Source: an uncultured bacterium (GTDB taxonomy: Bacteria; Babelota; Babeliae; Babelales; Babelaceae). From it: DNA of 64,000 bases. Positions 2,570-64,000 of this stretch are shown here, piece after piece (position 1 is the stretch's first letter; each line of letters starts with the position of its first letter). The DNA lies in the NCBI GenBank assembly GCA_963848965.1, contig CAWKFG010000002.1, positions 1,191-65,190 on the forward strand. The letters are read 5' to 3'. The notes under the pieces were generated by a model, which saw only the letters and a program-made list of their open reading frames with translations, had not been told where the DNA came from and did not search any database. A program made the translations under genes and the position numbers.

Positions 2570-2846
2570 CCATGCTCAGTTCCTTATATAAAGGATCGTA
2601 TAGAATTATTTTTCCACTCTTGAAGAAAAATATCTACTAAACGCTTCGTAGTCAAAATCTGGACATAATAGCATTCACGTTACTTAAAAAAGCAATTAAA
2701 TACTAGATTCATCTATAATGCGTTTTATAATACTAAGGCGGCAGTTTTAACAAAAGCAAAGTTCAGCAAAAAGTTACATTTAGTTGCAAAATACAACTAA
2801 ATGGAGTATAGTAGATATAAGTTATCTCTTAATTAAAGGATCTACC

Positions 2847-3077: not shown

Positions 3078-3101
3078 CTAACTTGCCTTTAAAGGAAAGT
3101 A

Positions 3102-24272: not shown

Positions 24273-24764
24273 ATGGAAAAGCTTTATGCGCCTTGGCGCG
24301 GTAACTATATAAATAACGGTACATCTGGCAAATGCGTGTTCTGCTGTTGTGCTCAAAGTACGAATGACGAAGAAAATTTTATTTTAAAACGGTATCCAAC
24401 CGGTATGGTTATGTTGAACCTTTACCCTTACAATGCTGGTCATATACTTATTGTACCCTTTACCCATACAGCTCATATAACTACCTTAACTGCCAAAGAA
24501 CGATTTGAGATGGTTGAAATGGCAAGTATAAGTTCTGCTATCTTAGAACAAACACTCAATTGTGAAGGCATAAACATAGGAGTTAATATAGCAAAGTCAG
24601 CTGGAGGAAGCATACCGGAGCATATTCATATGCATGTAGTTCCTCGTTGGACAGGAGATACTAATTTCCTTGTCACAACTGCAGATACTAAGGTTGTTCC
24701 TTTTGATCTCTGCCACATCTATAAAAAGCTTCGTGCTGCCCTTCTTATTTCGAAGAATGTTTAA
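24273..24764 (+). CDS. HIT-family nucleotide hydrolase/transferase
   Basis: Histidine triad HIHMHVVPR, followed by WTGDTNF. The start follows the previous stop by 2 nt. Confidence 0.85.
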   Translation: MEKLYAPWRGNYINNGTSGKCVFCCCAQSTNDEENFILKRYPTGMVMLNLYPYNAGHILIVPFTHTAHITTLTAKERFEMVEMASISSAILEQTLNCEGINIGVNIAKSAGGSIPEHIHMHVVPRWTGDTNFLVTTADTKVVPFDLCHIYKKLRAALLISKNV

Positions 24765-26112: not shown

Positions 26113-26205
26113 ATACCAGAACACATTCATATGCATGTAGTACCTCACTGGACAGGAGATACTAATTTCCTTGTTACAACTGCAGATACTAAGGTTATTC
26201 CTTTT
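26113..26205 (+). pseudogene. duplicated 3' fragment of the HIT gene
   Basis: 85 of 93 nt are identical to 24612..24704 (hand alignment). It encodes IPEHIHMHVVPHWTGDTNFLVTTADTKV but has no upstream part. Confidence 0.8.
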
Positions 26206-39491: not shown

Positions 39492-39803
39492 TCATTTTTT
39501 GCTCTTAAAAATTTCTTGGGGCTCTTTTTCAAGAGTTGCGAGAAGATGCGCTAAGCTAGATAAAGTTAAGTTAGCTTCACCACGTCTAATCTTAGCAACT
39601 TGGACTGGAGTTGAATCTAACCGTCTTACAAGTTCATTAAAGCCAATATTATGCTTACTCATATAATCTTCCATAGCAGATGAGATTGATTCTTGTAATA
39701 AGGACAAGAATCTAATTTCACGTTCTGCTCGTTCTTCAATTTCAGCAATTTCATTTTTGCTTAATCTCTTTTCAAGATATTCTTGAAAACTTTTTGTTTT
39801 CAT
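39492..39803 (-). CDS. XRE-family HTH antitoxin (HigA-like)
   Basis: 103 aa. The HTH is FNELVRRLDSTPVQVAKIRRGEANLTLSSLAHLL. It sits immediately downstream of a Gp49-like toxin. Confidence 0.7.
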   Translation of the reverse strand: MKTKSFQEYLEKRLSKNEIAEIEERAEREIRFLSLLQESISSAMEDYMSKHNIGFNELVRRLDSTPVQVAKIRRGEANLTLSSLAHLLATLEKEPQEIFKSKK

Positions 39804-39815
39804 AAATGTCCTTTT

Positions 39816-40136
39816 CTATAACTGTGAAAGCCGCTTACGTGCAATCCTTATATCCCTTTCTTGTTCTGATTTATTACCTGCAGCAAGCAAAATAATTATA
39901 TCACCACCAGAAAATGAATAATAAATTCTATAACCATACTTAAGTTCTCGTAATTCAAAAAGACCCTTCTTTAAAGGTCTACTATGTGGAAGTTTTAACG
40001 CATTGCCAGATTTTTCCAAGATTTTTATTACAGCAGCAACCTCCTTAAACTGTTCATCCGTTAGCGAGTTAAACCATTTTTCAATAGGATTGTTCTTTTT
40101 TGCCCCATCCCAGTACTCAATTTTCCATCTCTTCAT
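39816..40136 (-). CDS. Gp49/HigB-like RelE-superfamily toxin (DUF891 type)
   Basis: 106 aa. ...PIEKWFNSL...KLPHSRPLKKGLFELRELKYGYRIYYSF.GGDIIILLAAGNK matches the phage Gp49-like killer pattern. Confidence 0.75.
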   Translation of the reverse strand: MKRWKIEYWDGAKKNNPIEKWFNSLTDEQFKEVAAVIKILEKSGNALKLPHSRPLKKGLFELRELKYGYRIYYSFSGGDIIILLAAGNKSEQERDIRIARKRLSQL

Positions 40137-40967: not shown

Positions 40968-41328
40968 TGGTGGAGGCGATGGGAATCGAACCCATGTCCG
41001 CACTACAATCGACTTAAAGCGCTACATGCTTAGTCTTTATCAATTCTTATAAAAATACTTAAAGACAGGTATTTTTTATAAGCTTGGTTTGTGTTCATTC
41101 AAGCTACAGACCAAGGTAACCTTGCTTGACGTCCTATAAAGGGTAATACGAGCCTTATCGATCTATAGGCATATCAATGAGACAAGTGTGTTGCCGCTAT
41201 TAAGCGAAAGCAACAGCAGATTGTGCTGTATTTGCACTTATTGTTTGACCATTTATTTTACGAGTACTCAGTCAAAGCTCGGCATGCTCTTCAAGCGTCT
41301 TATAACACGTCGAAGCCAGTACGCCCCC
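40968..41328 (-). ncRNA. ssrA: transfer-messenger RNA (tmRNA, SsrA), 361 nt
   Basis: The 5' end GGGGGCGTACTGGCTTCGACGTG and the 3' end GGACATGGGTTCGATTCCCATCGCCTCCACCA form a 7-bp acceptor stem with G3:U, plus a T-arm and CCA. The internal reading frame GCA AAT ACA GCA CAA TCT GCT GTT GCT TTC GCT TAA TAG gives the tag ANTAQSAVAFA. Confidence 0.92.
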
Positions 41329-41381: not shown

Positions 41382-41600
41382 TTTAAAACCCTGTACCAAA
41401 AGCACGTATTTTACCTTCTAACGCTCGAATAAGGTTTCCTATAAACTATTATTAATGCCTTATAGTCAAAGAAGGGCTCTTCATTAAAAAGACTCTTGAC
41501 TGAATTATTCTTTTCAGTATACTAATATTTGAAATTAAATTGTTTTTATAGAACTTTCTTAGTTTTTTATTTATATTTATCATTATATAATGAGATTGTC

Positions 41601-42884
41601 ATGAAAAAATTACTTTTCTATGCCCTTATCTATGCAGTTGGAAGCTGCTCTTTCTTTATGTATTCTATGGAAAACCCTTTTGATGACTTTAATGTAGACC
41701 TTATAGACTTTGGATACATTGATAACGTTGATAATTTTTCTCTAGAAAGTTTTATTGACCTTAGTCCTTCAGAAGATCTTTCGCACAAAAAAAGGCCATA
41801 TAATGCCGAAATTATTCAACAAGATGCTCTTGTTCAAGAAAGTCCTCAAAAAAAGTTAAAAATCGATGGTTCAGTTGCTCTTCTTTTAAAAGAATTACAA
41901 ATGCTTGAAGAGAAGCATAGAGCAGTACGTGCAAATCTTATAGAAGAGGCAAAAAAGCTTGCATTACGATGCCAGGTTAACTTTGATTTGATACGTCCTT
42001 TAGATTTAAACTATAACAACCTTCCCTTATACGAAGGCGTATCAAAACTTTCACAAGATCTTCTTTTAAAAAGTAAAGATGCTCCTTTTCTTTTAACATT
42101 ACAACCAAAGGCTCGTGCAGAACTTCTTACTGCACTCACAGTAAAAACAGAGATTATTATAAAAGAAGTGACTGTTCTAGAAAAAGTCCTTGAATGTATT
42201 AGCACTGGATCTACATTCACACATACAGTTTATCCGCAGCCCGAAACAGAGCTTCTTGATGTTATTCAGCTTGATCAGCTTCTTAAAGAATCATTACGGT
42301 GCTCTCGAGATTCAGAACGATCAAGAGACTCTTGGCTTACAAAATTGAAGTGGTTAATCTCTTTATATTCATTTAATATCTCTAAAAAATTTGCTCGCCA
42401 ATTAGGTGAAGAATCTCATAATCCATTACACGAAGTGTTTCAAAAGACTCTCGGTAATGCACTTATTGTACATGCAAAACATCATAGCATTACTTATAAA
42501 GACTTTTGCACGCTTTTAAAATTTATTATGCAAGATAGTCCTTTAGCTGCACCATTTATTGCTCGTGTAGGAGAATTTTTAGCATCAATACATGCAACAC
42601 ACACGAAACTTGGACTTATTAAAAGTCTTATTAGCCAAACGTTAAAAGCAAGCATTAATGCAGCTGAAACTAAAGAGGTATTTACCTGTGCTATTTGTTA
42701 TGAAGCACTTTCAGTATCTTCTAAACAATCTCTTTCTCAAGATGATTTCCAAGGTATTGTTACTCCTGCCTGCGCTTGTCAAAATTATTACCATAAAGCC
42801 TGTCTTGAAAAATGGATAGCAAACGGCTGCCCTATTTGCAAACGAAAAGTTGGTATTCAACCTATTATTAATCCTCAATCATAG
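41601..42884 (+). CDS. secreted protein with a C-terminal C4HC3 RING-like zinc finger (candidate E3-ligase-like effector)
   Basis: The ATG at 41601 (MKKLLFYALIYAVGSCSFF signal) is preferred over the TTG at 41529. The C-terminus reads CAIC-x24-CAC-x4-H-x2-C-x8-CPIC and contains HKACLEKW. Confidence 0.6.
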   Translation: MKKLLFYALIYAVGSCSFFMYSMENPFDDFNVDLIDFGYIDNVDNFSLESFIDLSPSEDLSHKKRPYNAEIIQQDALVQESPQKKLKIDGSVALLLKELQMLEEKHRAVRANLIEEAKKLALRCQVNFDLIRPLDLNYNNLPLYEGVSKLSQDLLLKSKDAPFLLTLQPKARAELLTALTVKTEIIIKEVTVLEKVLECISTGSTFTHTVYPQPETELLDVIQLDQLLKESLRCSRDSERSRDSWLTKLKWLISLYSFNISKKFARQLGEESHNPLHEVFQKTLGNALIVHAKHHSITYKDFCTLLKFIMQDSPLAAPFIARVGEFLASIHATHTKLGLIKSLISQTLKASINAAETKEVFTCAICYEALSVSSKQSLSQDDFQGIVTPACACQNYYHKACLEKWIANGCPICKRKVGIQPIINPQS

Positions 42885-45921: not shown

Positions 45922-46374
45922 CTAAAACTTTCCACGAAGTTCTCTGCGAGTTTCTCGTGCAATATCCCGTTCTCTAAGCTCTTCCTTCTTTGCATGAGCT
46001 TTTTTATGTTTGCATAATCCAAGCTCTACTTTAACTTTTCCTTTATCATTAAAATACAGCTTTAAAGGAACAAGTGTCACTCCTTTACGAGAGATATCTC
46101 CTACAATTCTCGTAAGCTCTCGTCGATGCACTAAGAGTTTGCGAGTACGACGAGCTAGTTCTTCACTCTTAGAATAGGCATGAGAGTACGGTGGAATATA
46201 ACAGTTAATGAGATTAAGCTCATTCTGATGAATAGTAGCAAATGAACCAGGAAGTGAAACCTGGTTTGCTCGTAAAGACTTTACTTCATCGCCAGTAAGT
46301 ACAATACCAGTTTCAATGCGGTCTAAAATTTCATAATCATGAAAAGCTTTTTTATTTTGAGCAATAATTTTCAT
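45922..46374 (-). CDS. smpB: SsrA-binding protein SmpB
   Basis: The ATG at 46374 is preferred (MKIIAQNKKAFHDYEI...GIVLTGDEVKSLR...LVPLKLYF.DKGKVKVELGL.KHKK). Confidence 0.95.
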   Translation of the reverse strand: MKIIAQNKKAFHDYEILDRIETGIVLTGDEVKSLRANQVSLPGSFATIHQNELNLINCYIPPYSHAYSKSEELARRTRKLLVHRRELTRIVGDISRKGVTLVPLKLYFNDKGKVKVELGLCKHKKAHAKKEELRERDIARETRRELRGKF

Positions 46375-46583
46375 ACAACCTTTAAACAAAAAACTCTGAG
46401 CACTTTCTAAAAGCAGTAGCTAGATTATAACAAAACAATATTACAGATAAAAGCCGTTTTTTTATTAGTATAACAGAGATTCAGTAGGAAATAAACTAAC
46501 GCCCATTTCTATTTATTGACAAATAAGAACTTATTAATATATAATTTGTATAAAAACAAGTTTATTTTAAAATGAGAAACGTT

Positions 46584-52368: not shown

Positions 52369-53166
52369 CTAGCCTTTATTATTAGTATGCCCTGAATTTT
52401 CATGAATGTCAAAAATTTCGTATTTCTTTTTCCAAGCTTCTAAAGAGACAGGAAAATGGGGCAAAGCAAGTTCTAGAAGCCCTTTAGCATATTGCCGGAT
52501 CTCAAACTGGGCATTAGGATTAAGCCGAAGCTTTAAAAAATGCATAAGAGAATGCAAATTGCAAGTATAAATAAATTCAGAGTAGGTGCAGAGTGGTAAT
52601 ACTCCTCGAGCCTGTTCTCTACAGATACCTTTTTCTAAAAGCTTCTCATTTACTCTAAAAGCAGCCTCTATAGCCTCTTTATAAAGCTCTTCAAGCTCTT
52701 TATCCTTAAATGCTCCTTGAGAGCTCTGTTTATTTTTAGCATCTGGGTTACGCCAATAGGCAGGAATATAGAATTCCATAGGAGCTTTAACGTACCGGTA
52801 GCTAATTTCGTTATACGAGCTCATACGGTGGCGCATCCATTGCCGAACAATGTAAATAGGTGCTTTTACACGAAAAGAAAGCTGATTATGTTCAAAAGGG
52901 CTTGTATGCTCATGCTCCATAAGATAGCCAATAAGGTTCTTATCCCGTTCAGAAAGCTCCTTACTAAATTTGCCATAAGAGACACGAGCAGCATTTACGA
53001 TATCAACATCTGAGCCAGAAACCCGTACAAGCTCCAATGAGCTTCGGCCATCACCTAAAGGATCAAGTTTTACTGAGACTGCAATTTCCTGATATTCAGG
53101 CTGCTTATTAAGCTCACTCTCCATAATTAAGGTAAAATTCGAAGTTTCTAACGTTTCTTGAGCCAT
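52369..53166 (-). CDS. thyX: FAD-dependent thymidylate synthase ThyX
   Basis: The ThyX signature RHRMSSYNEISYRY (RHRxxSxxxxSxR). Confidence 0.9.
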   Translation of the reverse strand: MAQETLETSNFTLIMESELNKQPEYQEIAVSVKLDPLGDGRSSLELVRVSGSDVDIVNAARVSYGKFSKELSERDKNLIGYLMEHEHTSPFEHNQLSFRVKAPIYIVRQWMRHRMSSYNEISYRYVKAPMEFYIPAYWRNPDAKNKQSSQGAFKDKELEELYKEAIEAAFRVNEKLLEKGICREQARGVLPLCTYSEFIYTCNLHSLMHFLKLRLNPNAQFEIRQYAKGLLELALPHFPVSLEAWKKKYEIFDIHENSGHTNNKG

Positions 53167-53296
53167 AATGTCTCCTGCCTAAGATTGTGATAATTTTATG
53201 CCTTAGTGTACCCAAAAATTGAAAAAATCAAAACATTGTTTTTAGCCCAAAAACTGTTATTCTAATATCGTTTATACATACCTCTAGGAGAGCTTT

Positions 53297-54751
53297 ATGC
53301 ACTACGTATTGCTGGTATTTACCCCTCTATTTTTGTTCACAATATATTCACAGCCTCTTCAAGCAAGAGCTAAACCTCCTAAAAAGCATGATCCTCTTCT
53401 TGCTATTGTACTTATGGCAAAAAATGAAGAATCAGTTATGGTACGAACTTTAAAGCCTTTTGTAGAAGCGCAAAAAGTAAATCCTGATGGAACTGTAACA
53501 AAACTCATTGATTCGTATCTTATTCTTGATACTCAATCTGGAGATAAAACAGCTCAAGTTACCAAAAATTACTTTAAAGAGCAGAAAGTCAAACGTGGCT
53601 ATGTAGTCACGGAACCTTTTAAAGCAGTTTCAGATGCTCCTACCATTGACTATGCAGCAACACGTAACCGATCACTGGAGCTTGCAGAACAAAAGTTTCC
53701 TCATGCAGCTTTCTTCCTTATAGTCGATGCAGAATGGTATTTCCATGGAGTTGAAGAGCTCATTGCATTTTGCCAAAAGCATGCAAATCTCTCTCTTGAT
53801 GATCCTGCATATGCATCTTCATATCTTATTACTGTGCGTCATACCGGGGGTGGCCATTATTATCCATCTCCTCGACTTTTTAGAGCATCCTGCAAATTAC
53901 GTTATAAAGATGATATTCACGAACAGCCAGTTGAGCCAACAAATAAAAAACTGCCAAAAACCATCTATTTTGAGCAAAGTCCTGAAAGGTATGGAGACAA
54001 GAAATCTCAAGAACGATGGGAACGTACAGATAAAGAACGTTTACTCAAAAGGTATAAAGATAATCCACAAGATAAACGGTCACTCTTCCTTCTTGCTCGA
54101 ACTCATTTTGGCCTAGCTTGCACTACGTATAAGCTTGAAGACTTAGAACTCGCTTATAAATACTATAAAGAGCGACTCAAGCTTGTTATAGAAGATATCT
54201 CTGAGCATGATAAAAAGCGCACTGAAGCTGAACTGTTTGAGCTGTATGGCATTACGCAAAAAAAGACGTTTCCTAAGTATAAAAACTGTACTGAAGAAGA
54301 TTTTATGGCTATGTACGAACTTGCACAAACAACGGAACGACGAGCAAAACGTCAACGTTCATTTAGCTGGATTGAAGCACTAAGCTATTACTTGCAAGCA
54401 TATGCTATGCGGCCTCACAGAATAGAGCCTCTTATACGTATTGCACAGTATTATCTTCAGGTAGGTATGAGCAACCAGGCTTTGCTCTGTGCCCGTAAAG
54501 CATTTGACGTACCCTTTCCAGACAATGAACTCCTATGGGTAGAAGAAGATATGTATACGTTCCATCGCTATGACATGTTAAGTCAATGTGCATGGTTTGA
54601 AAAAGACTATGAATTAGGAGAAAAAGCAGTACTTAAAGCACTTGAGATTAATTCTGATAACAAACATTTTCAAAGCCATTTAGAATTATATAAAGAACGC
54701 AAAGCTGAACAAAAAGAGCAGTCTCAAAAGAAAGCAGCCATTACATCCTAA
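53297..54751 (+). CDS. signal-anchored GT-A-like glycosyltransferase with a C-terminal helical-repeat (TPR-like) region
   Basis: The hydrophobic N-terminus is followed by LAIVLMAKNEE (a GT2-like start) and IVDAEW (DxD-like). The C-terminal half is rich in TPR-like A..YY...L patterns. Confidence 0.45.
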   Translation: MHYVLLVFTPLFLFTIYSQPLQARAKPPKKHDPLLAIVLMAKNEESVMVRTLKPFVEAQKVNPDGTVTKLIDSYLILDTQSGDKTAQVTKNYFKEQKVKRGYVVTEPFKAVSDAPTIDYAATRNRSLELAEQKFPHAAFFLIVDAEWYFHGVEELIAFCQKHANLSLDDPAYASSYLITVRHTGGGHYYPSPRLFRASCKLRYKDDIHEQPVEPTNKKLPKTIYFEQSPERYGDKKSQERWERTDKERLLKRYKDNPQDKRSLFLLARTHFGLACTTYKLEDLELAYKYYKERLKLVIEDISEHDKKRTEAELFELYGITQKKTFPKYKNCTEEDFMAMYELAQTTERRAKRQRSFSWIEALSYYLQAYAMRPHRIEPLIRIAQYYLQVGMSNQALLCARKAFDVPFPDNELLWVEEDMYTFHRYDMLSQCAWFEKDYELGEKAVLKALEINSDNKHFQSHLELYKERKAEQKEQSQKKAAITS

Positions 54752-54785
54752 AAAGCCGAATTTCCGCGCTTACTTGAGGTAAACA

Positions 54786-55754
54786 ATGATAAAGTATATT
54801 TTCCTAGTTCTTATCGGTATCTGCACCTATTCAATAGCTACTAATAAGGTAGATTTTGATGCTTCTTTAGGCAAAAATGACTCTTATTTTGGCACATATT
54901 ATACGCAATGCATGAGTGCGTTTAATAAAGTAGGAAGCCAATGGGCATATCTAGGAACCTGCCCTGAACCTATTGGACCTTTAGTAACACTATGCCGTTC
55001 TCTTTACTATAAAAATCCATTGCCAACAACCTTACGTACGCCTGCACAACCTAAAATCCCTTTAAAAATTCACCAAATATGGCTTGGCAGTCCTTTTCCT
55101 GATAAATACAAAGCATGGCAAAAGACATGGCAATCAATGCCAGGGTTTGAGTATAAACTATGGACAGATGCTGACGTAGAAAAAATGGATTTTGATGTAA
55201 AAGATATCTATCTAAAGTCCAAAAACTATGGGCAACGCTCTGATATACTTCGAATGGTTATCTTAGAAAGAGAAGGTGGTATGTATATAGATACCGATTT
55301 TGAATGTATCTCACCAGAGTTTTTTAAGCTTCTGCACTGCACCTATGACTTTTACACAGGTTTACACCCTTTAGATGCAGAAACATTTGCCTTAGAAAAT
55401 GCGCTTATAGGCTCTATTCCTCATCATCCTATAGTCAAAGCATATCTTAAGCAGTTAAAAGATATATGGAACAAAACTTCAATTAACGATTACGACGAAG
55501 TGGTCATAAAAACGGGTCCCGGTCTTTTTACACGAGCATTTTCTCAAGAAGCAGGTAAAAAGTATAAAGATATAGCATTGCCTCCTACATTCTTTTATCC
55601 TCTTGGGCTTCATCAATGGGACTTTTTAAAGCGCTTTAGCTATGAGAGTATTAAAGCTAAAGTTTTAAAACCAGAGTCTGCTGCCATACATTGGTGGCAT
55701 GGAACATGGAAAGCTCCTCAATCTAAAGTTAAAGGAAGCTCAAAGAGACGCTAG
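54786..55754 (+). CDS. signal-anchored GT32-like glycosyltransferase (DXD sugar-binding region)
   Basis: IPLKIHQIWLG....P.......W and SDILRMVILEREGGMYIDTDFECI match the Gly_transf_sug/GT32 (Och1-like) motifs. Confidence 0.7.
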   Translation: MIKYIFLVLIGICTYSIATNKVDFDASLGKNDSYFGTYYTQCMSAFNKVGSQWAYLGTCPEPIGPLVTLCRSLYYKNPLPTTLRTPAQPKIPLKIHQIWLGSPFPDKYKAWQKTWQSMPGFEYKLWTDADVEKMDFDVKDIYLKSKNYGQRSDILRMVILEREGGMYIDTDFECISPEFFKLLHCTYDFYTGLHPLDAETFALENALIGSIPHHPIVKAYLKQLKDIWNKTSINDYDEVVIKTGPGLFTRAFSQEAGKKYKDIALPPTFFYPLGLHQWDFLKRFSYESIKAKVLKPESAAIHWWHGTWKAPQSKVKGSSKRR

Positions 55755-55788
55755 AGCTCCCTTTAATCTCGAGTTTGCTTTTTCCTCT

Positions 55789-56949
55789 TTATTTCTTTTT
55801 TCTTGTACGTTTAATCAGCAAATAGCCTTCATCTTGTTTCTTAAAGACCTTTAGATGTGCTTTTATAATATTGTTATAGTTCAATTCATGATAGCAAAGT
55901 TCTAACTCAGTTCTTAATTTTCTTCTTAAGGAAGTATCTTTTATTGTTTGCTCTATTGTTGCAACAAAAATTTCAGGATCTTTAGGTGTCCTAATTGTAC
56001 CTGCTACAAGATCCATATAATGAGTAGAATCAGTAACTACTGTTGGTAATCGAGCAGCTATGAATTGAGCTGCTGCTCCCGATACCGATCTTGTATCCAT
56101 ACCAGCCCACAAATAGCCTAAATCAGAAATATAGAGCCTTCTACTCAATTCTTTTTGATCTAAAAACTTAGTTATATGTATTACCTGAGCTTTTAGTTGA
56201 TATTTTTCCACCACGTCCCTTACTTTAGCATGCTCAACCGCACATAATTCTGGAGTAAACGTATTATAAGAGGTTAAAAGTTGAACTTTATGGTTTGGAT
56301 TAGATTTTAACCAAGGAACTAAAAACTCCAAAATAGGACCAAATTGCTTCCAATTAGCCATAAAACCTGTAGTAGTTAATATAATATCATTTGTATTAAA
56401 GCCATACTTTACTCGTAATCGCTTTCTAAATTCTTGCGTTCTTATCAAAGGAGGCTCAAAAACAGGAACACCGTGATGCACCATATTGATCTTACCTGTT
56501 TCCTCAAAAAATAAAGAAGGCTTATGATAAATGCATTGATCAAAAAGATGAATCAAACGATGCATATCATTTGATTCATAATGAACAATAGCTACTACTT
56601 TGATACCATTAACACGAAGATTTTGAATTAATGGCAATAAAACTTCAGTAGAGGGAAGTATCCCTGGTTCATATTGAATATTCAATACCTGTATTCCGTC
56701 TTGCTTTACTTGTTCTAATAACTCATTTGGGCTTAAAGTGTGTGGATAAACAAATACTGAATGTCCTGCCTTTTTAAGGGCTACGTATAAATTCTTTGTG
56801 TAGATAGCAATTCCACATTTAATGTTCCAAGAACTCCAATAGCCAACTCTTAGATTCGAGTTATCTACTAGAAAATTTCTTTTATGGTTTTCTCCATTCA
56901 AGCAAAAACTTACTAATATTGTTAAAATATAACGTGCTATAATTCTCAT
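55789..56949 (-). CDS. GT-B (GT4-like) glycosyltransferase
   Basis: 386 aa. The N-terminal RVGYWSSWNIKCGIAIYTKNL pattern and a C-terminal ...GAAAQFIAARLPTVVTD segment resemble group-1 glycosyltransferases. The N-terminus is hydrophobic. Confidence 0.45.
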   Translation of the reverse strand: MRIIARYILTILVSFCLNGENHKRNFLVDNSNLRVGYWSSWNIKCGIAIYTKNLYVALKKAGHSVFVYPHTLSPNELLEQVKQDGIQVLNIQYEPGILPSTEVLLPLIQNLRVNGIKVVAIVHYESNDMHRLIHLFDQCIYHKPSLFFEETGKINMVHHGVPVFEPPLIRTQEFRKRLRVKYGFNTNDIILTTTGFMANWKQFGPILEFLVPWLKSNPNHKVQLLTSYNTFTPELCAVEHAKVRDVVEKYQLKAQVIHITKFLDQKELSRRLYISDLGYLWAGMDTRSVSGAAAQFIAARLPTVVTDSTHYMDLVAGTIRTPKDPEIFVATIEQTIKDTSLRRKLRTELELCYHELNYNNIIKAHLKVFKKQDEGYLLIKRTRKKK

Positions 56950-57094
56950 TTTGCTCCTTTAAACTAGCAATTACAGTGACCCCTTCAATGTTTTACCTTA
57001 AACAAACATTTAAAGTAGTGTCAACAGATTAGATGCCAATTCTTTGTCGGTTAGCAGAATTTGAATTAAACTCTAAAAATTAAAACTAGCAGTC

Positions 57095-58120
57095 CTATAA
57101 AGAAGGTAAAACTTGGCTTTGTGATTTCTGTGAGTTTTCTATTTTATAGTGTGCTATTACTTCTTTAGCACTTGCTTGGAAATGGAGAGCTTTAAACTTT
57201 ATTTGCATATCAAGACCTTTATTATAACAAACAGGATAGCCATCAAAAAACTTGATATCTTTTATCTCTATCTTAGAGCCATCTTTTAATCTTACTGTCT
57301 TCATTTCATAACTTCGGTAAATCTCTCCCGTCCATTGGGGAGCAAATATAGAAGAGTCAAAAGTAGATTGATCTATAATCTGTGTTAAACTACAAATCTT
57401 CAATTTACTTTGGTATCTTTTTACAAAAATTGGAAAAAGAGGAATATCGTCTATAATATGAGTCCATGATTTAGATAGGTCATATTGCTTGGCAAGCATA
57501 CTTATTGTTTGCTTATCATTATAAAAATCAATAAGAAAGGTATTCAGCTCTTGAATAGAACTTAAATTCCAAAAGGAAATCATACCTACTTCTCCATTTA
57601 CTAAAGCTATATCAAAATCTTTGTAATTTTTATAATATTCTTCTGTAGCATTACAATAAAGCATTACATCTGACTCAATATAAAGAGCTACCGGTATAGA
57701 ATTTTTTCTTATAAATTCCCCTAAAATAAACCAGCGCTGAAAGACCGTTATACCCCACTCATAACTACAGGAGGTAAGGTGAGTATATAATGAAGCAAAG
57801 TAGCTAGCAGACGTATAGTAATCTGCTATATTATAATGCTCAATTCCTAAATGTGAGTAATGACTATTGCTTGCGTCTCCAATCAAGATAACTCGATCAT
57901 TAAATTGTTTGGCCTGATACAATGTATGCTCCAAATAATGAGGATCATTTTTATGTACGAAAATAACTGGAATACTAGTATTTAAATTATCTTTACTATC
58001 TACAGCATATAGAGAAGTTTCGATTCCTGTTATTAATAAGTACAATACTAGATATCTCTTTAAAAGCATGCATCTTCTCCTCAATTTTAACAAAAACCAA
58101 CAAAATCCCTTATTTTTCAT
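57095..58120 (-). CDS. hypothetical signal-anchored protein in the glycosyltransferase cluster
   Basis: ORF of 341 aa (324 aa if the ATG at 58069 is used, giving MLLKRYLVLYLLITGIETSLYA). No motif recognised. Confidence 0.3.
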   Translation of the reverse strand: MKNKGFCWFLLKLRRRCMLLKRYLVLYLLITGIETSLYAVDSKDNLNTSIPVIFVHKNDPHYLEHTLYQAKQFNDRVILIGDASNSHYSHLGIEHYNIADYYTSASYFASLYTHLTSCSYEWGITVFQRWFILGEFIRKNSIPVALYIESDVMLYCNATEEYYKNYKDFDIALVNGEVGMISFWNLSSIQELNTFLIDFYNDKQTISMLAKQYDLSKSWTHIIDDIPLFPIFVKRYQSKLKICSLTQIIDQSTFDSSIFAPQWTGEIYRSYEMKTVRLKDGSKIEIKDIKFFDGYPVCYNKGLDMQIKFKALHFQASAKEVIAHYKIENSQKSQSQVLPSL

Positions 58121-58210
58121 TTAAGAGCTCTTGACCACTACTTCGCGCAGCTATTCGATTTTACTTCTGTATAAAATAAGATAAACACTTATCTATGTCT
58201 AATAAATTAC

Positions 58211-59392
58211 TTAAGGCTTAAAAGTAAATAAGTATTTATCTTGATCAAAAACATCTAACTTCATTCTATCAAGCCCAAGCTGTTGTACCAGCCCAGGATG
58301 CATACTAATACCTTCGTCATTTCCAACATGTATGGCTCTATTGACAACAGTTTCTATCTTTACATAATCCGCCATCCAAAGAATAAGTGCCATCATATTA
58401 TCTAATTCAATCCAACATTCCTTAGAAGTATAAAGTCCTTCAATAGCTTTATATGTATGAGGGCAAGAGAAAGCTTTCTTATCTTTCTCTCTTAACCGCA
58501 GTAGCTCAGGAAAATTAGTAGTTCCTTGTGTTCGAGCAACTAATTTTTGTTGTACAAGACTCTTTATCCACGCTTTTATTTTCCAAGCATCTTTCCAGCT
58601 CTCCACTTTAGATCGAGCTCTGGCAAACTCTTCAGTATGTGGGATTTCATCAAGAAAGCTTTCGTATTCATAGAGAATATGTTTTGTACCATCCCAGAAT
58701 TTTTTATCTAAACAGTAAGTTACGAAACTCCACCAATGCAAGGGTTCCCGTACCCAATCAAGTCTCTTAGCTTTTATTTCTCTATCTAAAAAGCAATAAG
58801 ACCAACAAGATACCATTCCTACATTATGGTAATTATCTGTTGCCCACTTATGTAAATTAAGAGTTAGTTCAATGTAAGAGGGACTTACCATTAAATCCTC
58901 CTCAAAGAGGATAGTTTTGCTATATCCACACCAATCAAACATAAAACGCAATGCATCAATTTGGTTTTTAGGACATCCATAGTTTCTTGGCCTAAAAATA
59001 ATATTTTTATGCTTAATTGATGATTTCTGTATGAGGTCTGCATTCTCCGTCTGCTTTGCACGAGGACCACCATCTAAAAAGAAATAGAAGGGGAGTGTTT
59101 GAGCCTCTGGATTCTGTTCTAATGATTTAACAAGCTGCGCTAGATAATGAGGCCTATTATAACATATAATAGCAATGCCTACTGGCTCACTCATACGGTT
59201 TGAAGTGTCCCTATATAAAGAGTCATAACCATAAGACTCTAAAGAAGGGATTGTATTATTATTGCTATTCTCTGTTTGACAAATCGAGTGAGACATCGAG
59301 AGTAAAGTTATAAGAAAGAGAAAAATAGTTTTCTCTTTTCTAAAAATAAAGCTTAATTTTTGACAATTAAGAGGCTTATAATTTTCCATCAT
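58211..59392 (-). CDS. signal-anchored GT-A glycosyltransferase, GNT-I (GT13)-like
   Basis: VGIAIICYNRPHYLAQLVKSLEQ and ILFEEDLMVSPSYIE resemble the GlcNAc-transferase I family (CNRP.YL and the EDD motif). Confidence 0.45.
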   Translation of the reverse strand: MMENYKPLNCQKLSFIFRKEKTIFLFLITLLSMSHSICQTENSNNNTIPSLESYGYDSLYRDTSNRMSEPVGIAIICYNRPHYLAQLVKSLEQNPEAQTLPFYFFLDGGPRAKQTENADLIQKSSIKHKNIIFRPRNYGCPKNQIDALRFMFDWCGYSKTILFEEDLMVSPSYIELTLNLHKWATDNYHNVGMVSCWSYCFLDREIKAKRLDWVREPLHWWSFVTYCLDKKFWDGTKHILYEYESFLDEIPHTEEFARARSKVESWKDAWKIKAWIKSLVQQKLVARTQGTTNFPELLRLREKDKKAFSCPHTYKAIEGLYTSKECWIELDNMMALILWMADYVKIETVVNRAIHVGNDEGISMHPGLVQQLGLDRMKLDVFDQDKYLFTFKP

Positions 59393-59720
59393 TTAGTTTC
59401 CTATGGTAAATTTTAGTTCTACATTTTTATCAAAAGTCTTAATTTTAGCTTAAATCCATTAATAGGATTATAATTGAAAGCTAACCTCTCTCCTTACTTA
59501 GCTATTATTCACTTCAAAATTACTTAAATTTTAATTCAATAGAAAGGGAAAAAACAAGAATTGGTAACAGAAGATAAAAATATATTCAGGAGGTATCAAT
59601 ACAGCCTACAAGTGCATAAATAGTAACTCTAGAAAATATAGAGCTATATATCAGTAAATAAAGGCACAGGAACCTAGAAAAAATGAACTGATACATCTAA
59701 AAGATCAAGCCCTACTGAGC

Positions 59721-59750
59721 ACTAAGGAGCTTGCGTTCAAGCTCCTTAGT
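59721..59750. repeat. perfect 13-bp inverted repeat (hairpin)
   Basis: ACTAAGGAGCTTG-CGTT-CAAGCTCCTTAGT, about 150 nt downstream of the ugd stop. No adjacent T-run on either strand. Confidence 0.6.
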
Positions 59751-59901
59751 AAGCCCGCTTACCATAACTAAGATAAAATTCGAAGTTCCCAGAGAGCCCT
59801 GCCTAACTTCTCTTTACCCTAAAGATACTAATAATTTTAAGCTTCAATGTACCAAAAACATCATAGAATTATGTCTTCTACAAACGGCTAACCATCTATG
59901 T

Positions 59902-61314
59902 TTATATGACGTAAGCATTTCCTATATTTTTATAGATGAATCCTAAATTTTTTAATTGCTTCACATTTATTATATTGCGCGCATCAAACATCACAGGAGC
60001 ATGCATCAGTGCATGTACTTTGTTAAGATCCATAACCTTAAATTCTTCCCATTCAGTAAGTACTATAGCAGCATCTGCATTTTCTACAGCATCCCAAATC
60101 GATTCGCAGTATGTAATCTTAGGGATGAGCTTTTTCATGCTATTCATTGCCATAGGATCATATGCTTTAACACGTGCACCTGCATTTTGCAAAAGCTCTA
60201 TAATAGCAATTGCAGGTGAAGACCGAACGTCGTCAGTGTTTGCTTTAAACGCTAACCCTAATATTGCTATCGTTTTATCGCGAATAGAACCGCCTAATAA
60301 AGATATAAGTTTATGAAATATCTTGCTTTTGTGTTCTTCATTTGCAATAAGTACAGATTCTAATATTTTAAGCTCATTTTTTAGGGCTTTGCCCTTGTAA
60401 ACAAGTTCATGAGAGTCTTTAGGAAAACAGGAACCTCCAAAACCTGGCCCTGGCTTTAAAAATTGTGACCCAATACGGGGGTCCATTCCTATTCCCTTTA
60501 CTACTTCAATTATATCTGCTCCAACACCTTCACAAAGGTCTGCAAGCTCATTTACAAAGGCTACTTTTGTTGCTAAAAATGCATTTGATCCATATTTAAT
60601 CATCTCTGCACTTACAATACCTGTATACAGAAAAGGCACTTTGCGCTTGTGAAAGTCCTGGTAAATCTCATCCATGATATGACGAGCTCTCTTTGATTGC
60701 ACACCTAAGACAATACGATATGGATAAAGAAAGTCTTGAATAGCACTTCCTTCTTTTAAGAATTCAGGATTTGAGACTATATCAAAAGAATGCTTTCCCT
60801 GCAAAGAAGTTTTTATAAGCATTTCAACTTTATGTGTCGTTCCTATAGGAACCGTACTTTTAGTGCAAATAACTTTATATTCGGTTAGATTCTGTCCTAT
60901 GAGCCTTGCAACACTTTTAACTGCAGAAGTATCTGCTTTCCCATTTGGCTTCATTGGAGTACTTACAGCAATAAAAATTACTTCACTCTTTTTAATAGCT
61001 TCTGCAGGATTATCAGTAAAAGAGATATTTCTTTTTGTGATTACTTCAGAAAGCATCTCATCTAGGCCCTGCTCATAAATAGGCGATTTTCCCTCTCTTA
61101 AAGTGCTTATTTTTTGCTTATCTGTGTCGGCACATATAACATAATGACCTTGATGAGCAAAGCATACTCCTGTTACAAGTCCAACATATCCTGTGCCTAT
61201 AATTGCTATGTGCTTAGGGTTCGATTTAGTTGGGCAAAACGATAATAAAGCTACAATGAAAAAAGTAAAAAAAGTTAATTTAATCTGCTTAACAAGCATC
61301 TTTATACTACTCAT
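59902..61314 (-). CDS. ugd: UDP-glucose 6-dehydrogenase with an N-terminal hydrophobic extension
   Basis: IAIIGTGYVGLVTGVCFA (Rossmann fold), GGSCFPKD (catalytic Cys) and the UDPG_MGDP_dh domains. It is preceded by about 33 extra residues, including LTFFTFFIVALLSF. Confidence 0.9.
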   Translation of the reverse strand: MSSIKMLVKQIKLTFFTFFIVALLSFCPTKSNPKHIAIIGTGYVGLVTGVCFAHQGHYVICADTDKQKISTLREGKSPIYEQGLDEMLSEVITKRNISFTDNPAEAIKKSEVIFIAVSTPMKPNGKADTSAVKSVARLIGQNLTEYKVICTKSTVPIGTTHKVEMLIKTSLQGKHSFDIVSNPEFLKEGSAIQDFLYPYRIVLGVQSKRARHIMDEIYQDFHKRKVPFLYTGIVSAEMIKYGSNAFLATKVAFVNELADLCEGVGADIIEVVKGIGMDPRIGSQFLKPGPGFGGSCFPKDSHELVYKGKALKNELKILESVLIANEEHKSKIFHKLISLLGGSIRDKTIAILGLAFKANTDDVRSSPAIAIIELLQNAGARVKAYDPMAMNSMKKLIPKITYCESIWDAVENADAAIVLTEWEEFKVMDLNKVHALMHAPVMFDARNIINVKQLKNLGFIYKNIGNAYVI

Positions 61315-61592
61315 CTAATTCTCCTAATAAAATTTTGCTTTTCTAAAACTGTTTCAGCCAACTTACTACAGTGTCGTAAAAAAGATCAAGATCACTCTTA
61401 CGCATAACAGCATAATATCAGTAATTGGTTTTAAAGAGACTGATTACAAATTGCTCTCTAGTAAGCAATAGATAACAGAAACACCTTAAGTATAACAATT
61501 CGTTATCACTTTTATCAGTGTAAAGTATAATAAAATAAATCTGAATAATTAAGAGAGGAGACAATTTTAGAACGCTTTAAAGGCTTATTAGT

Positions 61593-61620
61593 AAAGGAGA
61601 GCAAGGCTGCTCTCCTTTTT
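61593..61620 (+). terminator. orphan terminator-like hairpin
   Basis: AAAGGAGAGC-AAGGCT-GCTCTCCTTT followed by TT. It is plus-oriented, although both flanking genes are on the minus strand. Confidence 0.3.
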
Positions 61621-61663
61621 GATAATTCCTAGACCTCTTAAGCACATTGATTACTACTTTATA

Positions 61664-62488
61664 TTATTCCAAACTATCAAGGGGAGCATATGGTTTCTTG
61701 GTCCTTACGCTTGCTTCTAACTTAAGCTGGAGAGTTCTATCTATATGATGGTTACTAATAGGATTCCCAACATTATAGAGATAAATTATATCTGGAATGA
61801 ATTTAATATGACCTTTAGATGCCATCTCCAATAGAGGAAACATCATGGCCAGATCAGATGCCATCCGATAGAATTTACCTTCTTCGTCAAGTAAGTCTTC
61901 TCTTTTTATTTTTTTAAAGAGCTTTGCTCTATATGTTTTCAGATGACTGGTTACCCAAGGATACTTTCTAAAAGCATTTTCCTGTATTACCCATTGAGGA
62001 AGTTTTGCACAACAGCCCCGAGCTCCACTTGGATAATCCTTGAAAGAGCCATAAGTAAGCCATGTATTTTTATCTTTATATTCTTTTTCCACTCGAGCAA
62101 AAGCACCTGGCACTAGATAATCATCCCCATCTACTTGGACAACTATCTTATGATCAGGACATCCATGCACTACATTATAAATGTTTTCTAATGAACGGCC
62201 TACCCGTACTTTGTTATCAATAATTTTAACTTTAGGTTTAATATCATGCTCATCACGATACTTATTAATGAGATGTAGTGTTTTATCAGTAGAATCATCA
62301 TTAACGATAATGACTTCAAAGGGAGACTCAAGCTCTTGGGTTACTACTGTCTCTAAATTTTTTTCACAATACTTTTCATTGTTATAGGTCGTTATAATTA
62401 CAACAAACTCAAGAGGCTCTTCGTTTGTAGAATATATACATACAAAGTTAGTAACTAAAAGAATGCTAAAAAATATTTTTTGGTTCAT
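61664..62488 (-). CDS. GT2-family glycosyltransferase (signal-anchored)
   Basis: FVVIITTYNNEKY...VIIVNDDSTDKT and VDGDDYL are the classic GT2 motifs. The N-terminus is hydrophobic. Confidence 0.85.
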   Translation of the reverse strand: MNQKIFFSILLVTNFVCIYSTNEEPLEFVVIITTYNNEKYCEKNLETVVTQELESPFEVIIVNDDSTDKTLHLINKYRDEHDIKPKVKIIDNKVRVGRSLENIYNVVHGCPDHKIVVQVDGDDYLVPGAFARVEKEYKDKNTWLTYGSFKDYPSGARGCCAKLPQWVIQENAFRKYPWVTSHLKTYRAKLFKKIKREDLLDEEGKFYRMASDLAMMFPLLEMASKGHIKFIPDIIYLYNVGNPISNHHIDRTLQLKLEASVRTKKPYAPLDSLE

Positions 62489-62968
62489 AGTCGCTCTTTC
62501 GATAAAACTAGGATCAATTTTATTAATAAAGAATTACTCAATTTTCTTCCGTATAGCTTTTTAGTATTTCTTTTGTGATTTATTACACCCTAGTACTTAT
62601 ACTCATAATTTGTCAAGTAACTATAGGACATGGTTGAATTGTGAAATTAGATCTAATAATTTAAAGCAAAGAAATTGTTAAAGATCGGTCAATAGAGCTA
62701 GAGAGTCACTGCACAGCTTTAAGCCTATTATAACTTTCAATAACTTGCCTTCCTCTTAACAACGCTCTACTTCGAATCAATGCCTCTCGCTCCACGTCTG
62801 ATACGGATAATCATTTCATTCTAGCTTTCAAAAGCATGGGGTTTTCTGGTCATAGTAATAAAGTCTTTACTTCAATCCCTAGCCTATCCTAGTATTATCC
62901 AAAGGTTTATAGCTTTTAAAGTTAATAGACGCCTTCGTTAAACAATTTTATTTTAAAAGGAGAAATGT

Positions 62969-64000
62969 ATGTTACTCTTATATTTTGCTACCTTTGTTGT
63001 AGTAACCTCTGGCTCTACAAGGTCATTTGCTAATACAGAAGAACCTCTTGCTCTTATAAAATCAACTGAAATTACAAAAAATAAGCTCAAGGTTATTGTT
63101 AATCAGGAGTTTAAAAATAGGTACCTAAGAGAAGATTTCTTTATAAAATATAATGACAATGACATTGACCTAACCAAACTTGATTACTCTATAGTTATTA
63201 TGCCTTTTTTGTTAAACGTTATCTCAATGGTTTGGAATTCAGGCAAAAAATACACGATAGCTTCTCTAGATAGCGATCTCTATACATCCTTAGAGACTAT
63301 CAAAAAAATTTACGTAAAAATGTATCCTAACCTCAAATGGGCTGGAGAACTTATACCAGAAAAATTAGTAAAAAATATAATAAACTTTGATTCTTCTCAT
63401 TCAAATATCAACAAATCTGTAGCTCTTACCTTTAGCGGAGGAGTAGATTCAACTTTCTCTTTCTTTACTCATCTTGATGAGAATATACATCTAATTTCTG
63501 CAGGAGGACATCCCGATCAACCATTAAGCTCAAAAAGTATGTGGGAAGAAAGACAAAAGCAACTTCTTTCTTTTGCTCAAAAGTACAATCGGCCTCTCTT
63601 CTTTCTTGAGTCAAATTATATTACTTTTATTAATTGGGGTAGACTTAACAGCTTATCTCCTGCAATAACAGATTGGCGCTTAGGAACACTTGAAGGATTA
63701 AGTTTAACAGGTTTAGTTGCTCCTATACTTGTAAGTAAAAGGATTTCCCGACTCTATATCGCATCCTCCTATAGCTGGAGCTATCCTTATGCTACTGCAG
63801 CAAACCCGTTTGTAGATAACAACATCTGTTTTGCCAGAGATATAAGAGTTATTCACGATAGTTTTGACTTTTCACGATACGATAAGATTCGCTATATTGT
63901 CAACGCCTGTAAAGATAAAAATTTAAAGCCTTTTTTAAAAGCATGCGATAAACCTTCGCTTAGTAATTGCTGTGGAAGTTGGGATAGATGTAAAAAGTGC
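62969..64000 (+). CDS. PP-loop (SGGxDS) ATP-pyrophosphatase-family protein, partial (3' end outside the window)
   Basis: ATG at 62969 lies 6 nt after AGGAG. The frame is open for 344 codons to the window edge. It has a signal-like N-terminus, ALTFSGGVDSTFSF (PP-loop) and a Cys-rich end (NCCGSWDRCKKC). It is absent from the ORF track because it is unterminated. Confidence 0.5.
   Translation, partial: MLLLYFATFVVVTSGSTRSFANTEEPLALIKSTEITKNKLKVIVNQEFKNRYLREDFFIKYNDNDIDLTKLDYSIVIMPFLLNVISMVWNSGKKYTIASLDSDLYTSLETIKKIYVKMYPNLKWAGELIPEKLVKNIINFDSSHSNINKSVALTFSGGVDSTFSFFTHLDENIHLISAGGHPDQPLSSKSMWEERQKQLLSFAQKYNRPLFFLESNYITFINWGRLNSLSPAITDWRLGTLEGLSLTGLVAPILVSKRISRLYIASSYSWSYPYATAANPFVDNNICFARDIRVIHDSFDFSRYDKIRYIVNACKDKNLKPFLKACDKPSLSNCCGSWDRCKKC

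Follow-up and report, generated by a model that had tools for sequence, protein, structure and literature searches.

In textbook bacteria, glycosyltransferases that use sugar nucleotides are cytoplasmic, since the periplasm is devoid of UDP-sugars, NAD+ and ATP, and the finished glycans leave the cell on lipid carriers. A different arrangement is suggested by a 64,000-nucleotide stretch of DNA (hereafter the window) from an uncultured bacterium of the Babelaceae. Between positions 53297 and 64000 of the window lies an island of eight genes, among them several for glycosyltransferases and one for UDP-glucose 6-dehydrogenase (Ugd), and the products of all eight begin with a short hydrophobic segment. 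The favored interpretation, which the sequences lead us to hold with a probability of roughly 60%, is that these enzymes are exported and that a glycan is assembled outside the cytoplasm from host nucleotide sugars. The eight open reading frames (ORFs) of the region, found at the coordinates that a first-pass annotation of the window had given, are the following.

53297-54751, plus strand: P1, 484 residues; hydrophobic segment at residues 1-18 (nt 53297-53350), an N-domain and a C-terminal TPR region
54786-55754, plus strand: P2, 322 residues; glycosyltransferase of the GT32 (DXD) type; predicted signal peptide at residues 1-19 (nt 54786-54842)
55789-56949, minus strand: P3, 386 residues; weakly GT4/GT-B-like; predicted signal peptide at residues 1-19 (nt 56893-56949)
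57095-58069, minus strand: P4, about 324 residues counted from codon 18 of the longest ORF, which extends to 58120; predicted signal peptide MLLKRYLVLYLLITGIETSLYA
58211-59392, minus strand: P5, 393 residues; GT-A enzyme of a family of its own, with a GnT-I/POMGNT1/MGAT2-like fold by its model
59902-61314, minus strand: P6, the UDP-glucose 6-dehydrogenase Ugd, 470 residues, with a 34-residue N-terminal extension that is hydrophobic at residues 13-27; predicted signal region nt 61231-61314
61664-62488, minus strand: P7, 274 residues; GT2 enzyme; predicted signal peptide at residues 1-20 (nt 62429-62488)
62969-64000, plus strand: P8, enzyme of the PP-loop ATP-pyrophosphatase fold, cut by the window end; predicted signal peptide at residues 1-22 (nt 62969-63034)

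Part of this picture is already known: the signal-rich secretome of the Dependentiae, the exported UDP-glucose-using enzymes of Chlamydia trachomatis and the glycosylation clusters of giant viruses. In Chlamydia trachomatis, exported sugar-nucleotide-dependent enzymes make glycogen in the inclusion lumen from host UDP-glucose (Gehre et al. 2016, PMC4829429). That system resembles the one proposed here in that a polymer is made outside the bacterium from host UDP-glucose. It differs in employing type 3 secretion, in producing a single polymer and in depending on the host transporter SLC35D2 to bring UDP-glucose into the vacuole, whereas in the island a whole variable toolkit is tagged by Sec signals, NAD- and ATP-dependent enzymes included.

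The Dependentiae (Babeliales) are obligate intracellular parasites of protists. The window belongs with them: its Rho protein is 86% identical to a protein of a 'Candidatus Dependentiae bacterium', 83% to that of Babela massiliensis and 80% to that of a Babeliaceae metagenome-assembled genome (MAG), and the sole sequencing run found to contain window DNA is a soil metagenome, no RNA run having turned up. In Chromulinavorax destructans, signal peptides are present on 44% of the coding sequences and on 78% of the ankyrin proteins; this organism imports host ATP, replicates in the host cytoplasm and has no lipopolysaccharide (LPS) genes that could be found (PMC6561590). In B. massiliensis, signal peptides occur on 79/126 ankyrin proteins, and no secretion system other than one of type II (T2SS) was detected (PMC4378268). 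Sec plus T2SS form the presumed export route of Dependentiae, the only one known (PMC4378268, PMC6561590). The island is like this secretome in coming from the same phylum, where N-terminal signals are carried by a very large share of proteins, ankyrin- and RING-type proteins among them. It differs in what is tagged, namely sugar-nucleotide enzymes and Leloir glycosyltransferases, whereas the published accounts cover ankyrins, proteases, nucleases and ORFans (PMC4378268, PMC6561590). The term 'glycosyl' is absent from the main text on C. destructans (PMC6561590), and its single occurrence in the Babela paper refers to a DNA glycosylase (PMC4378268). Literature searches combining Dependentiae with glycosyltransferases or signal peptides returned no description of the feature; within the library searched, no paper linked Dependentiae and glycosyltransferases in a relevant way, and no description was found of Sec-tagged Ugd, GDP-mannose 4,6-dehydratase (Gmd) or Leloir glycosyltransferase toolkits.

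Three further systems bear comparison. The type II glycosyltransferases of the Golgi (GnT-I of GT13, MGAT2 of GT16, and POMGNT1) are the closest to P5 in fold and share with it a sugar-nucleotide-using domain that, in P5, is predicted to be non-cytoplasmic; sulfotransferases and GT14/GT10-type families accompany P5 in related loci, adding to the likeness. Conversely, the P5 family remains under the GNT-I and MGAT2 Pfam cut-offs, and the hydrophobic cores of the island proteins are shorter and cleavable-looking. Golgi enzymes depend on nucleotide-sugar transporters, and we know of no Golgi counterpart for an exported Ugd, Gmd or nucleotidyltransferase. O-antigen and capsule loci of the Wzx/Wzy- or ABC-dependent kind resemble the island in combining glycosyltransferases with UDP-glucose dehydrogenase and modifying enzymes and in varying in content at a fixed chromosomal site; their enzymes, however, are cytoplasmic and work with a priming transferase and a flippase, polymerase or exporter, none of which was found in the island, where export signals are present instead. 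Giant viruses possess clade-specific autonomous clusters for activated-sugar synthesis and glycosyl transfer, drawing on the precursor pool of the host cytoplasm (Speciale et al. 2022, PMC9614988). Like the island, such a cluster equips a parasite of protists with its own glycosylation genes, and large viral contigs encode P5-family relatives. The viral enzymes, unlike those of the island, are made in the host cytoplasm, where an export signal is unneeded, and the viral P5 relatives carry none.

N-terminal segments of the island enzymes

The first-pass annotation had noted a hydrophobic start on each island enzyme, and a segment of this kind is indeed present in 8/8 proteins. Translation of the segments was considered gene by gene. 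In P2, P3, Ugd, P7 and P8, no in-frame ATG, GTG or TTG occurs from the segment to the catalytic domain, so that in these five genes the segment must be translated for want of an alternative start; the next in-frame start of P2 is codon 43, and P7 has a single possible start within its first 50 codons. Shine-Dalgarno-like sequences lie upstream of the P1, P2, P3, P5, Ugd and P8 starts, with AGGAG found 8 nt upstream of the P1 start and also before the ATG of P3 and of Ugd. In P4, the sequence GAGGAG precedes codon 18 (nt 58069), which is most likely the true start and still lies upstream of the P4 segment.

Core length and flank charge were measured by simple heuristic rules, a Sec-type core being expected to have about 7-15 residues and a membrane span 20 or more. 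In the P5 family the segment is present in 46/52 members and has a median core of 13 residues (range 8-20); the N-flank carries the greater positive charge in 39/46, and the C-flank in 2. For the close homologs of P8, the segment is found in 24/26, the median core is 14.5 residues, and the N-flank is the more positive in 18/24 (reverse in 3); for the 13 Ugd proteins with an extension, the corresponding values are 11 residues and 11/13 (reverse in 1). Over all families cores span 8-21 residues, those of the island proteins 9-17. Within the island, P2-P5 and P7 have more positive charge before the core than after it, while P8 has no net charge on either side (0 vs 0) and Ugd scores +3 vs +2. The segments end in YA-Q, YS-Q/T, IA-T or FA-N (the hyphen marking the predicted cleavage point), resembling in this the DcaP-like outer membrane protein, the Skp/OmpH protein and the FKBP isomerase of the same window. 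Under a permissive simple rule, candidate small residues at -3/-1 of a putative cleavage site are found in nearly all sequences.

Comparison with a congener whose Rho is 97% identical to that of the window revealed that the N-terminal segments retain their hydrophobicity at 39-68% sequence identity, the mature parts being 74-88% identical. For the P1 ortholog, which bears a textbook signal ending in TTYA-QS, identity over the mature part is 80%, against 39% over residues 1-18; the P2 ortholog gives 88% and 47% for mature part and signal, respectively. Judged by sequence, this divergence pattern is how signal peptides evolve. Together, the data show segments that exist, are translated, conserved and signal-like in sequence, have their hydrophobicity kept by selection and track a host-associated lifestyle. 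They look like ordinary Sec-type signals rather than Golgi anchors. The proposal of a Golgi-style type II anchor was not borne out, as cores are short, N-flanks are mostly positive and the segments end like those of the bacterium's own envelope proteins. Almost every enzyme of the locus would thus carry a Sec-type signal peptide, presumably cleaved, or at least an N-in signal-anchor.

Other kinds of signal were considered and discarded. A lipoprotein signal for signal peptidase II is contradicted by the phenylalanine at -1 in the candidate sequences of Ugd (LSFC) and P3 (VSFC), and the congener has tyrosine in place of the cysteine of Ugd; only a LicD protein on a contig of the same species (L001, described below) fits a lipobox of the form [LVI][ASTVI][GAS]C (LLGC). 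Export of the cofactor enzymes by the Tat system was set aside as no S/T-R-R-x-F-L-K-like motif was seen in the N-termini, inspected by eye only and with no formal scan. As to the type II signal-anchor of Golgi enzymes, the cores are mostly shorter than the span of about 17-25 residues expected, a linker is present in P5 but absent in Ugd and P7, and no eukaryote-named P5 relatives are listed.

The same kind of N-terminus is found on about 21-24 of the 50 other ORFs of the window, including two ankyrin proteins, a RING-finger protein, hydrolases and a pair of RXYLT1/exostosin-like proteins. It is missing from the housekeeping ORFs Rho, AlaRS, GlyA, EF-P, Ndk, S1, ThyX and TsaD, so that the window mirrors the phylum in its distribution of signals. 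The island is enriched over this background (8/8 vs about 45%, p of about 0.002). The unusual point, beyond enrichment, is which enzymes carry the tag.

That such segments are unusual for these enzyme families, as the first-pass annotation had claimed, is supported by relatives that lack them. MAGs bearing the labels Chlamydiae, Simkaniaceae, Babeliales and Pseudomonadota contain P5 relatives with a segment, which were recovered by a profile scan, a genome scan with the single P5 protein giving no match. The P5 relatives of the free-living Peribacillus and Brevibacillus, in contrast, begin at the domain, as do those on 190-kb and 78-kb viral contigs (IMG/VR). Distant P8 relatives are without a segment in 11/12 cases, including the sole named one, from Algibacter, whereas nearly all close relatives have it (see above). 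The viral P5 sequences suggest that protist-associated bacteria and large viruses share genes; when viral proteins were searched by structure with P5, all matches were of a generic GT-A kind. On viral contigs L012 (3127-6035) and L013 (3506-6252), the P5-family gene adjoins a gene for a protein of about 400 residues common to both contigs.

An exhaustive search was made for relatives of Ugd. Among the 150 cluster representatives closest to it, 113 have a canonical start and 12-13 carry a hydrophobic extension of 17-41 residues, and several extended proteins are among the very best Ugd matches. In a rough neighbor-joining tree, a single clade of 16 sequences gathers 14 of the 17 Ugds with an extension, among them the window Ugd and those adjoining P5 genes in Chlamydiae and Simkaniaceae MAGs. 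Related loci contain additional enzymes with the same type of extension: a Gmd whose domain begins at residue 38 (contig L007, 3276-4454), a hexapeptide sugar nucleotidyltransferase (NTP-transferase) whose domain begins at residue 28 (L008, 3360-4460) and a sulfotransferase in a Babeliales MAG (L004, 2691-3464). GT4 enzymes of related loci are tagged as well. Homologs of P3 were found in L008 and L004; the one in L008 (11463-11700, minus strand) is interrupted by a frameshift that leaves its signal and first strand in another frame, which reflects either a sequencing error or a pseudogene.

Enzyme families and a variable locus

Most of the family assignments made at first stood, with different degrees of support. 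P2 is a GT32 enzyme, scoring 37.4 bits against Pfam Gly_transf_sug (cut-off 23) and containing the DXD motif as YIDTDF. It also matches TcdA_TcdB (PF12919) with 30.3 bits (cut-off 23.6), yet just at profile positions 169-204 of 382, that is, over 35 residues around the DXD. P7 reaches 55.2 bits against Pfam Glycos_transf_2, in keeping with its GT2 designation. Ugd contains all three UDPG_MGDP_dh domains (E 3e-62, 6e-35 and 4e-37), the first of them beginning at residue 35, with the NAD-binding GTGYVG and the catalytic-cysteine GGSCFPKD motifs intact; in NCBIfam it scores 473 bits with TIGR03026 (cut-off 189.8) and 530 with the TuaD equivalog, under the cut-off of 700 of the latter. The GT4 assignment of P3 is weak (Pfam Glyco_transf_4, E 0.004, below cut-off), and that of P1 to GT-A found no support from any tool: its TPR matches are under the Pfam cut-offs, its N-domain matched no glycosyltransferase family in Pfam, NCBIfam or a PDB sequence search, and a profile comparison with the P5 family was non-significant. 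P4 gave no Pfam, NCBIfam or PDB match, and its first beta-alpha unit matches the P5 profile only non-significantly.

The GnT-I likeness of P5 was upheld at the level of fold. The protein consists of a charged N-tail, a hydrophobic helix (residues 22-38), a linker of about 30 residues and a catalytic domain with an E-E-D motif, of which D166 is invariant in the family. A Foldseek search with its AF2 model (pLDDT 88.7) returned as best match the rabbit GnT-I structure 1FOA (E 4e-10, TM 0.48/0.54), then POMGNT1 and MGAT2; bacterial GT2 structures ranked lower. In Pfam, P5 alone scores 17.3 bits with Glycos_transf_2, under the cut-off, and fails the GNT-I (PF03071) gathering score; across 30 family members, weak matches are to GT2 in 20/30, MGAT2 in 14/30 and GNT-I in 9/30 (best GNT-I E 2.8e-6). 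P5 belongs to a GT-A family of its own, GnT-I-like by the fold of its model. The 53 P5-family hits include no eukaryote-named protein; every named hit is bacterial (the named ones being Firmicutes) and most are unnamed metagenome proteins. The eukaryotic origin that the first-pass annotation had wished to see tested is thus not indicated, the more so as the G+C content of the island matches that of the window. Exact-sequence look-ups of the window Ugd and P5 gave no record.

P8, recognized as a PP-loop enzyme from the start, is complete on L001, where it has 454 residues (AF2 pLDDT 91.5). In its SGGxDS motif, G158 and D160 are invariant in the family and F155, S156 and G157 nearly so. Foldseek matches are to QatC (E 9e-5), Cap9, TtuA, ArgG and MnmA, with a core of about 190 residues alone aligning (TM 0.2-0.4). 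Since P8 has no Pfam, NCBIfam or PDB sequence match, its model identifies it as a representative of an undescribed family within the PP-loop ATP pyrophosphatase superfamily.

The island continues beyond the window. L001, which is 99.6% identical to window positions 59010-64000, extends it by the full P8 gene, three more P5 paralogs, a second GT32, a 309-residue protein and LicD, all with signal-like N-termini. The island therefore runs for about 8 kb past the window end, and the whole locus, of about 19 kb, comprises at least 15 enzymes, including four P5 paralogs, Ugd, the PP-loop enzyme and LicD. To the left of 59010, L001 and the window are unrelated; the breakpoint (L001 position 1708) falls inside P5, which on L001 is truncated to 145 residues, suggesting structural variation between strains or a join made in assembly.

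The comparison of island content that the first-pass annotation had called for was carried out with the congener (contig k141_706758; L017 1-21359 and L019 1-8526), which has different genes at the same site. The congener keeps the frame thyX - P1 - GT32 … Ugd … P8. Between and beyond these lie genes of its own, for a second GT32, GT2 enzymes, DUF6165, GT4 and GT14 'Branch' proteins, a GT10 fucosyltransferase-family protein, a polysaccharide deacetylase, more P5 paralogs and a TPR protein, with a transposase fragment at one end of the locus. Nearly all have signals, the exceptions being two GT14 'Branch' proteins and two short ORFs. By gene content, the locus appears to be a hypervariable glycan-synthesis locus, its turnover at a fixed site being like that of surface-glycan loci. 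No priming phosphoglycosyltransferase, flippase, polymerase or ABC exporter is present among the Pfam families matched in the island, L001, L017 and L019, where several called genes match no Pfam family. Recent horizontal acquisition of the island was considered and rejected, as its G+C content (0.32-0.385) is within the window range (0.32-0.40).

The three intergenic gaps of the island that had been singled out as atypical measure 509, 480 and 349 nt (G+C 0.30-0.32). They are long relative to the median of 99 nt, but as the 5th, 6th and 10th longest among the 59 gaps of the window they are not specific to the island; larger gaps occur elsewhere in the window, one of which contains the tmRNA gene. 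No Rfam match and no excess of promoter-like sites was found in the three gaps, the promoter scan giving fewer sites than shuffled sequence did. A terminator scan identified 12 hairpins in the region, against 5.5 ± 2.4 in shuffles, and 0/12 lie in the three gaps, which probably hold each gene's own promoter region. The gap between P5 and Ugd includes a diverged copy of the thyX 5' end, listed below with the glycosyltransferase-like genes outside the island.

59700-59850, unstranded: copy of about 150 nt of the thyX 5' end and upstream sequence (compare 53062-53210)
20303-21391 and 21422-22384, minus strand: pair of RXYLT1_C/exostosin-like genes adjoining the EF-P gene, each product with an N-terminal signal-like segment
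27791-29122, minus strand: GT28-like (diglucosyl-diacylglycerol-synthase-like) enzyme, with a hydrophobic N-terminal segment followed by PRNMRRPR

In the thyX copy, repeat D1 is 83% identical over 52 nt, and the pairwise mean column identity is 77% over 248 columns, the similarity extending across about 150 nt. Sequence of the thyX 5' end therefore flanks the P1-P5 block on both sides, and the copy is possibly the scar of a cassette insertion or exchange.

According to the first-pass annotation, the exostosin-like pair and the GT28 enzyme share the N-terminal feature of the island. All three have the segment, but in the GT28-like enzyme the charge that follows it suggests the opposite orientation. 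The paired proteins score 38.9 and 39.4 bits with Pfam RXYLT1_C (cut-off 27), Exostosin_GT47 remaining under its cut-off; glycosyltransferase clusters adjoin EF-P in L007 and L008 as well. The GT28-like enzyme matches Pfam Glyco_tran_28_C and, with 108.9 bits, NCBIfam NF010135 (below its 500-bit cut-off). From its sequence, it is probably a membrane-anchored enzyme whose catalytic domain lies in the cytoplasm, and so departs from the export pattern.

Elsewhere in the window, two ankyrin-repeat proteins and a RING-finger (E3-ligase-like) protein with signal-peptide-like N-termini are encoded at 24745-25590, 26195-27562 and 41529-42884, as in Dependentiae effectors. The tmRNA gene (40968-41328, minus strand; Rfam 182.5 bits) occupies part of a long apparent gap, and about 5 kb from it the ORF at 45922-46389 (minus strand) is SmpB-like by its N-terminal sequence and by a Pfam SmpB match of the syntenic congener gene (L019 14565-15017). 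A 342-residue protein (29349-30377, minus strand) has weak NCBIfam matches to ligand-gated ion channel families (E 7e-5), which would be unusual in a small bacterial genome. Pairs of small ORFs at 2784-3374, 7755-8105 and 39492-40136 are toxin-antitoxin- or addiction-module-like by size and pairing alone.

Proposed export and its alternatives

If the island enzymes are exported, each signal would carry its catalytic domain across the cytoplasmic membrane. The set tagged in this way consists of putative Leloir-type glycosyltransferases, a UDP-glucose dehydrogenase and a PP-loop, presumably ATP-using, enzyme. Export would make chemical sense only where UDP-sugars, NAD+, NADP+, ATP and NTPs exist outside the cytoplasm. 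Host nucleotides would have to cross the outer membrane into the periplasm, and they are expected to reach it because these bacteria import host ATP; once they are there, UDP-sugars, NAD+ and ATP can be at hand outside the inner membrane, unlike in free-living bacteria. There, or at the cell surface, or on the host side (the host cytosol) after type II secretion, a variable glycan might be built without lipid carrier or flippase. Ugd would make UDP-glucuronic acid on the spot, and P8 may modify a carboxylate. We infer the final location, the substrates and the acceptor of the glycan from these considerations. The first-pass annotation had envisaged either export into a host compartment or an unconventional topology; domains placed outside the cytoplasm and supplied with host sugar-nucleotides fit the data best, whereas a Golgi- or ER-like host compartment is disfavored. 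A cytosol-like pool is preferred to such a lumen because NAD-, NADP-, ATP- and NTP-dependent enzymes are among those tagged.

A number of points weigh against this interpretation. Gmd needs bound NADP+, and Sec exports unfolded protein, so that the cofactor would have to be loaded outside. The porins of these bacteria would be required to pass UDP-sugars and NAD+ (560-660 Da). With 44% of the proteins in the phylum tagged, the pattern could in part be a general habit of the lineage, irrelevant to chemistry. The topology rests on heuristics, and the analysis is computational only. The check for lipid-carrier genes covers about 60 kb, in which several called genes have no Pfam match. Individual segments are also less clear than the family averages: that of Ugd is ambiguous, two lysines following soon after the core, window P1, judged by eye, has five basic residues within 15 residues after the core, and the GT28-like enzyme shows a reversed bias (+1 before, +4 after).

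A different use of the exported enzymes is conceivable. Clostridial and Legionella glucosyltransferase toxins glycosylate host targets, and the island proteins could likewise be effectors, delivered by Sec and T2SS into the host cytosol to glycosylate host proteins or lipids instead of building a bacterial glycan. The above-threshold match of P2 to the catalytic glycosyltransferase domain of TcdA/TcdB speaks for this, as do the ankyrin and RING-finger proteins of the same window bearing the same type of signal and the TPR protein-interaction repeats of P1 (sub-threshold) and of a congener protein. Yet the toxin match is limited to the surroundings of the DXD, the large enzyme set (with, in the congener, GT10-family, GT14 and deacetylase proteins) reads as a line for synthesis of a complex polymer, and surface-glycan loci typically show such cassette-like turnover at a fixed site; we consider the effector role unlikely, if deserving of attention. 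Alternatively, the segments might be ordinary anchors, holding cytoplasmic catalytic domains in a membrane-bound complex that depends on a lipid carrier and on the sugar-nucleotides of the bacterium itself. Many bacterial glycosyltransferases act at the membrane, the GT28-like enzyme and window P1 are more positive after the segment, and some cores are as long as 17-20 residues. This explanation has to contend with the N-positive bias in all three families measured, with median cores of 11-14.5 residues, short for a membrane span, and with endings like those found on genuinely exported proteins of this genome, the signal of the P1 ortholog being textbook-like. Nor do soluble enzymes such as Ugd, Gmd and the nucleotidyltransferase have a known need of an anchor; free-living relatives do without the segment, and no lipid-carrier genes were found in the loci. 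We rate it as rather improbable.

Two other explanations carry little weight with us. Acquisition of Golgi enzymes from a eukaryotic host, with their type II signal-anchors retained after transfer, would account for GnT-I, POMGNT1 and MGAT2 being the best structural matches of P5, for its tail-helix-linker-domain layout and for the RXYLT1-like, GT32, GT14 (Branch), GT10 and sulfotransferase families in these loci. It is made very unlikely by the presence of the same segment on typically bacterial proteins (Ugd, whose best NCBIfam match is TuaD, Gmd and the PP-loop enzyme) and by the 0/53 eukaryote-named P5-family hits, most of them unnamed, with named Firmicutes relatives lacking the segment. 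The island G+C content equals that of the window, and the sequence of the segment is not conserved even between congeners. An annotation artefact, with true starts lying downstream and the segments untranslated, might be entertained for P4, whose longest-ORF start is probably 17 codons early, or for P5, which has an internal ATG at codon 33. Five genes without any start between segment and domain, the Shine-Dalgarno-like sequences upstream and the recurrence of the feature in dozens of independent homologs from other assemblies reduce the chances of this explanation to almost nil.

Export thus remains the preferred interpretation, and a broader scenario can be put forward, tentatively and at less than even odds. 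Energy-parasitic intracellular bacteria (Dependentiae, some Chlamydiae and Simkaniaceae, and some symbionts among the Pseudomonadota) may have moved a complete Leloir line outside the membrane by means of Sec signals, as a counterpart of the Golgi that would run on host nucleotides entering the periplasm and would need neither lipid carrier nor flippase. The line would comprise enzymes that make and interconvert sugar nucleotides (Ugd, Gmd, a nucleotidyltransferase) along with glycosyltransferases, sulfotransferases and an ATP-dependent modifier, and the module, with its largely monophyletic clade of exported Ugd, would have spread among unrelated protist-associated lineages. As for P8, its confident model places it in a PP-loop family that has yet to be described.

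Should the enzymes indeed be exported, obligate intracellular bacteria bathed in host metabolites would escape the rule that confines sugar-nucleotide chemistry to the cytoplasm, and the locus would represent a new layout for bacterial glycan synthesis. This would account for a variable sugar coat in parasites that have hardly any metabolism and lack LPS genes, and such a coat could matter for their uptake by, and survival in, protists.

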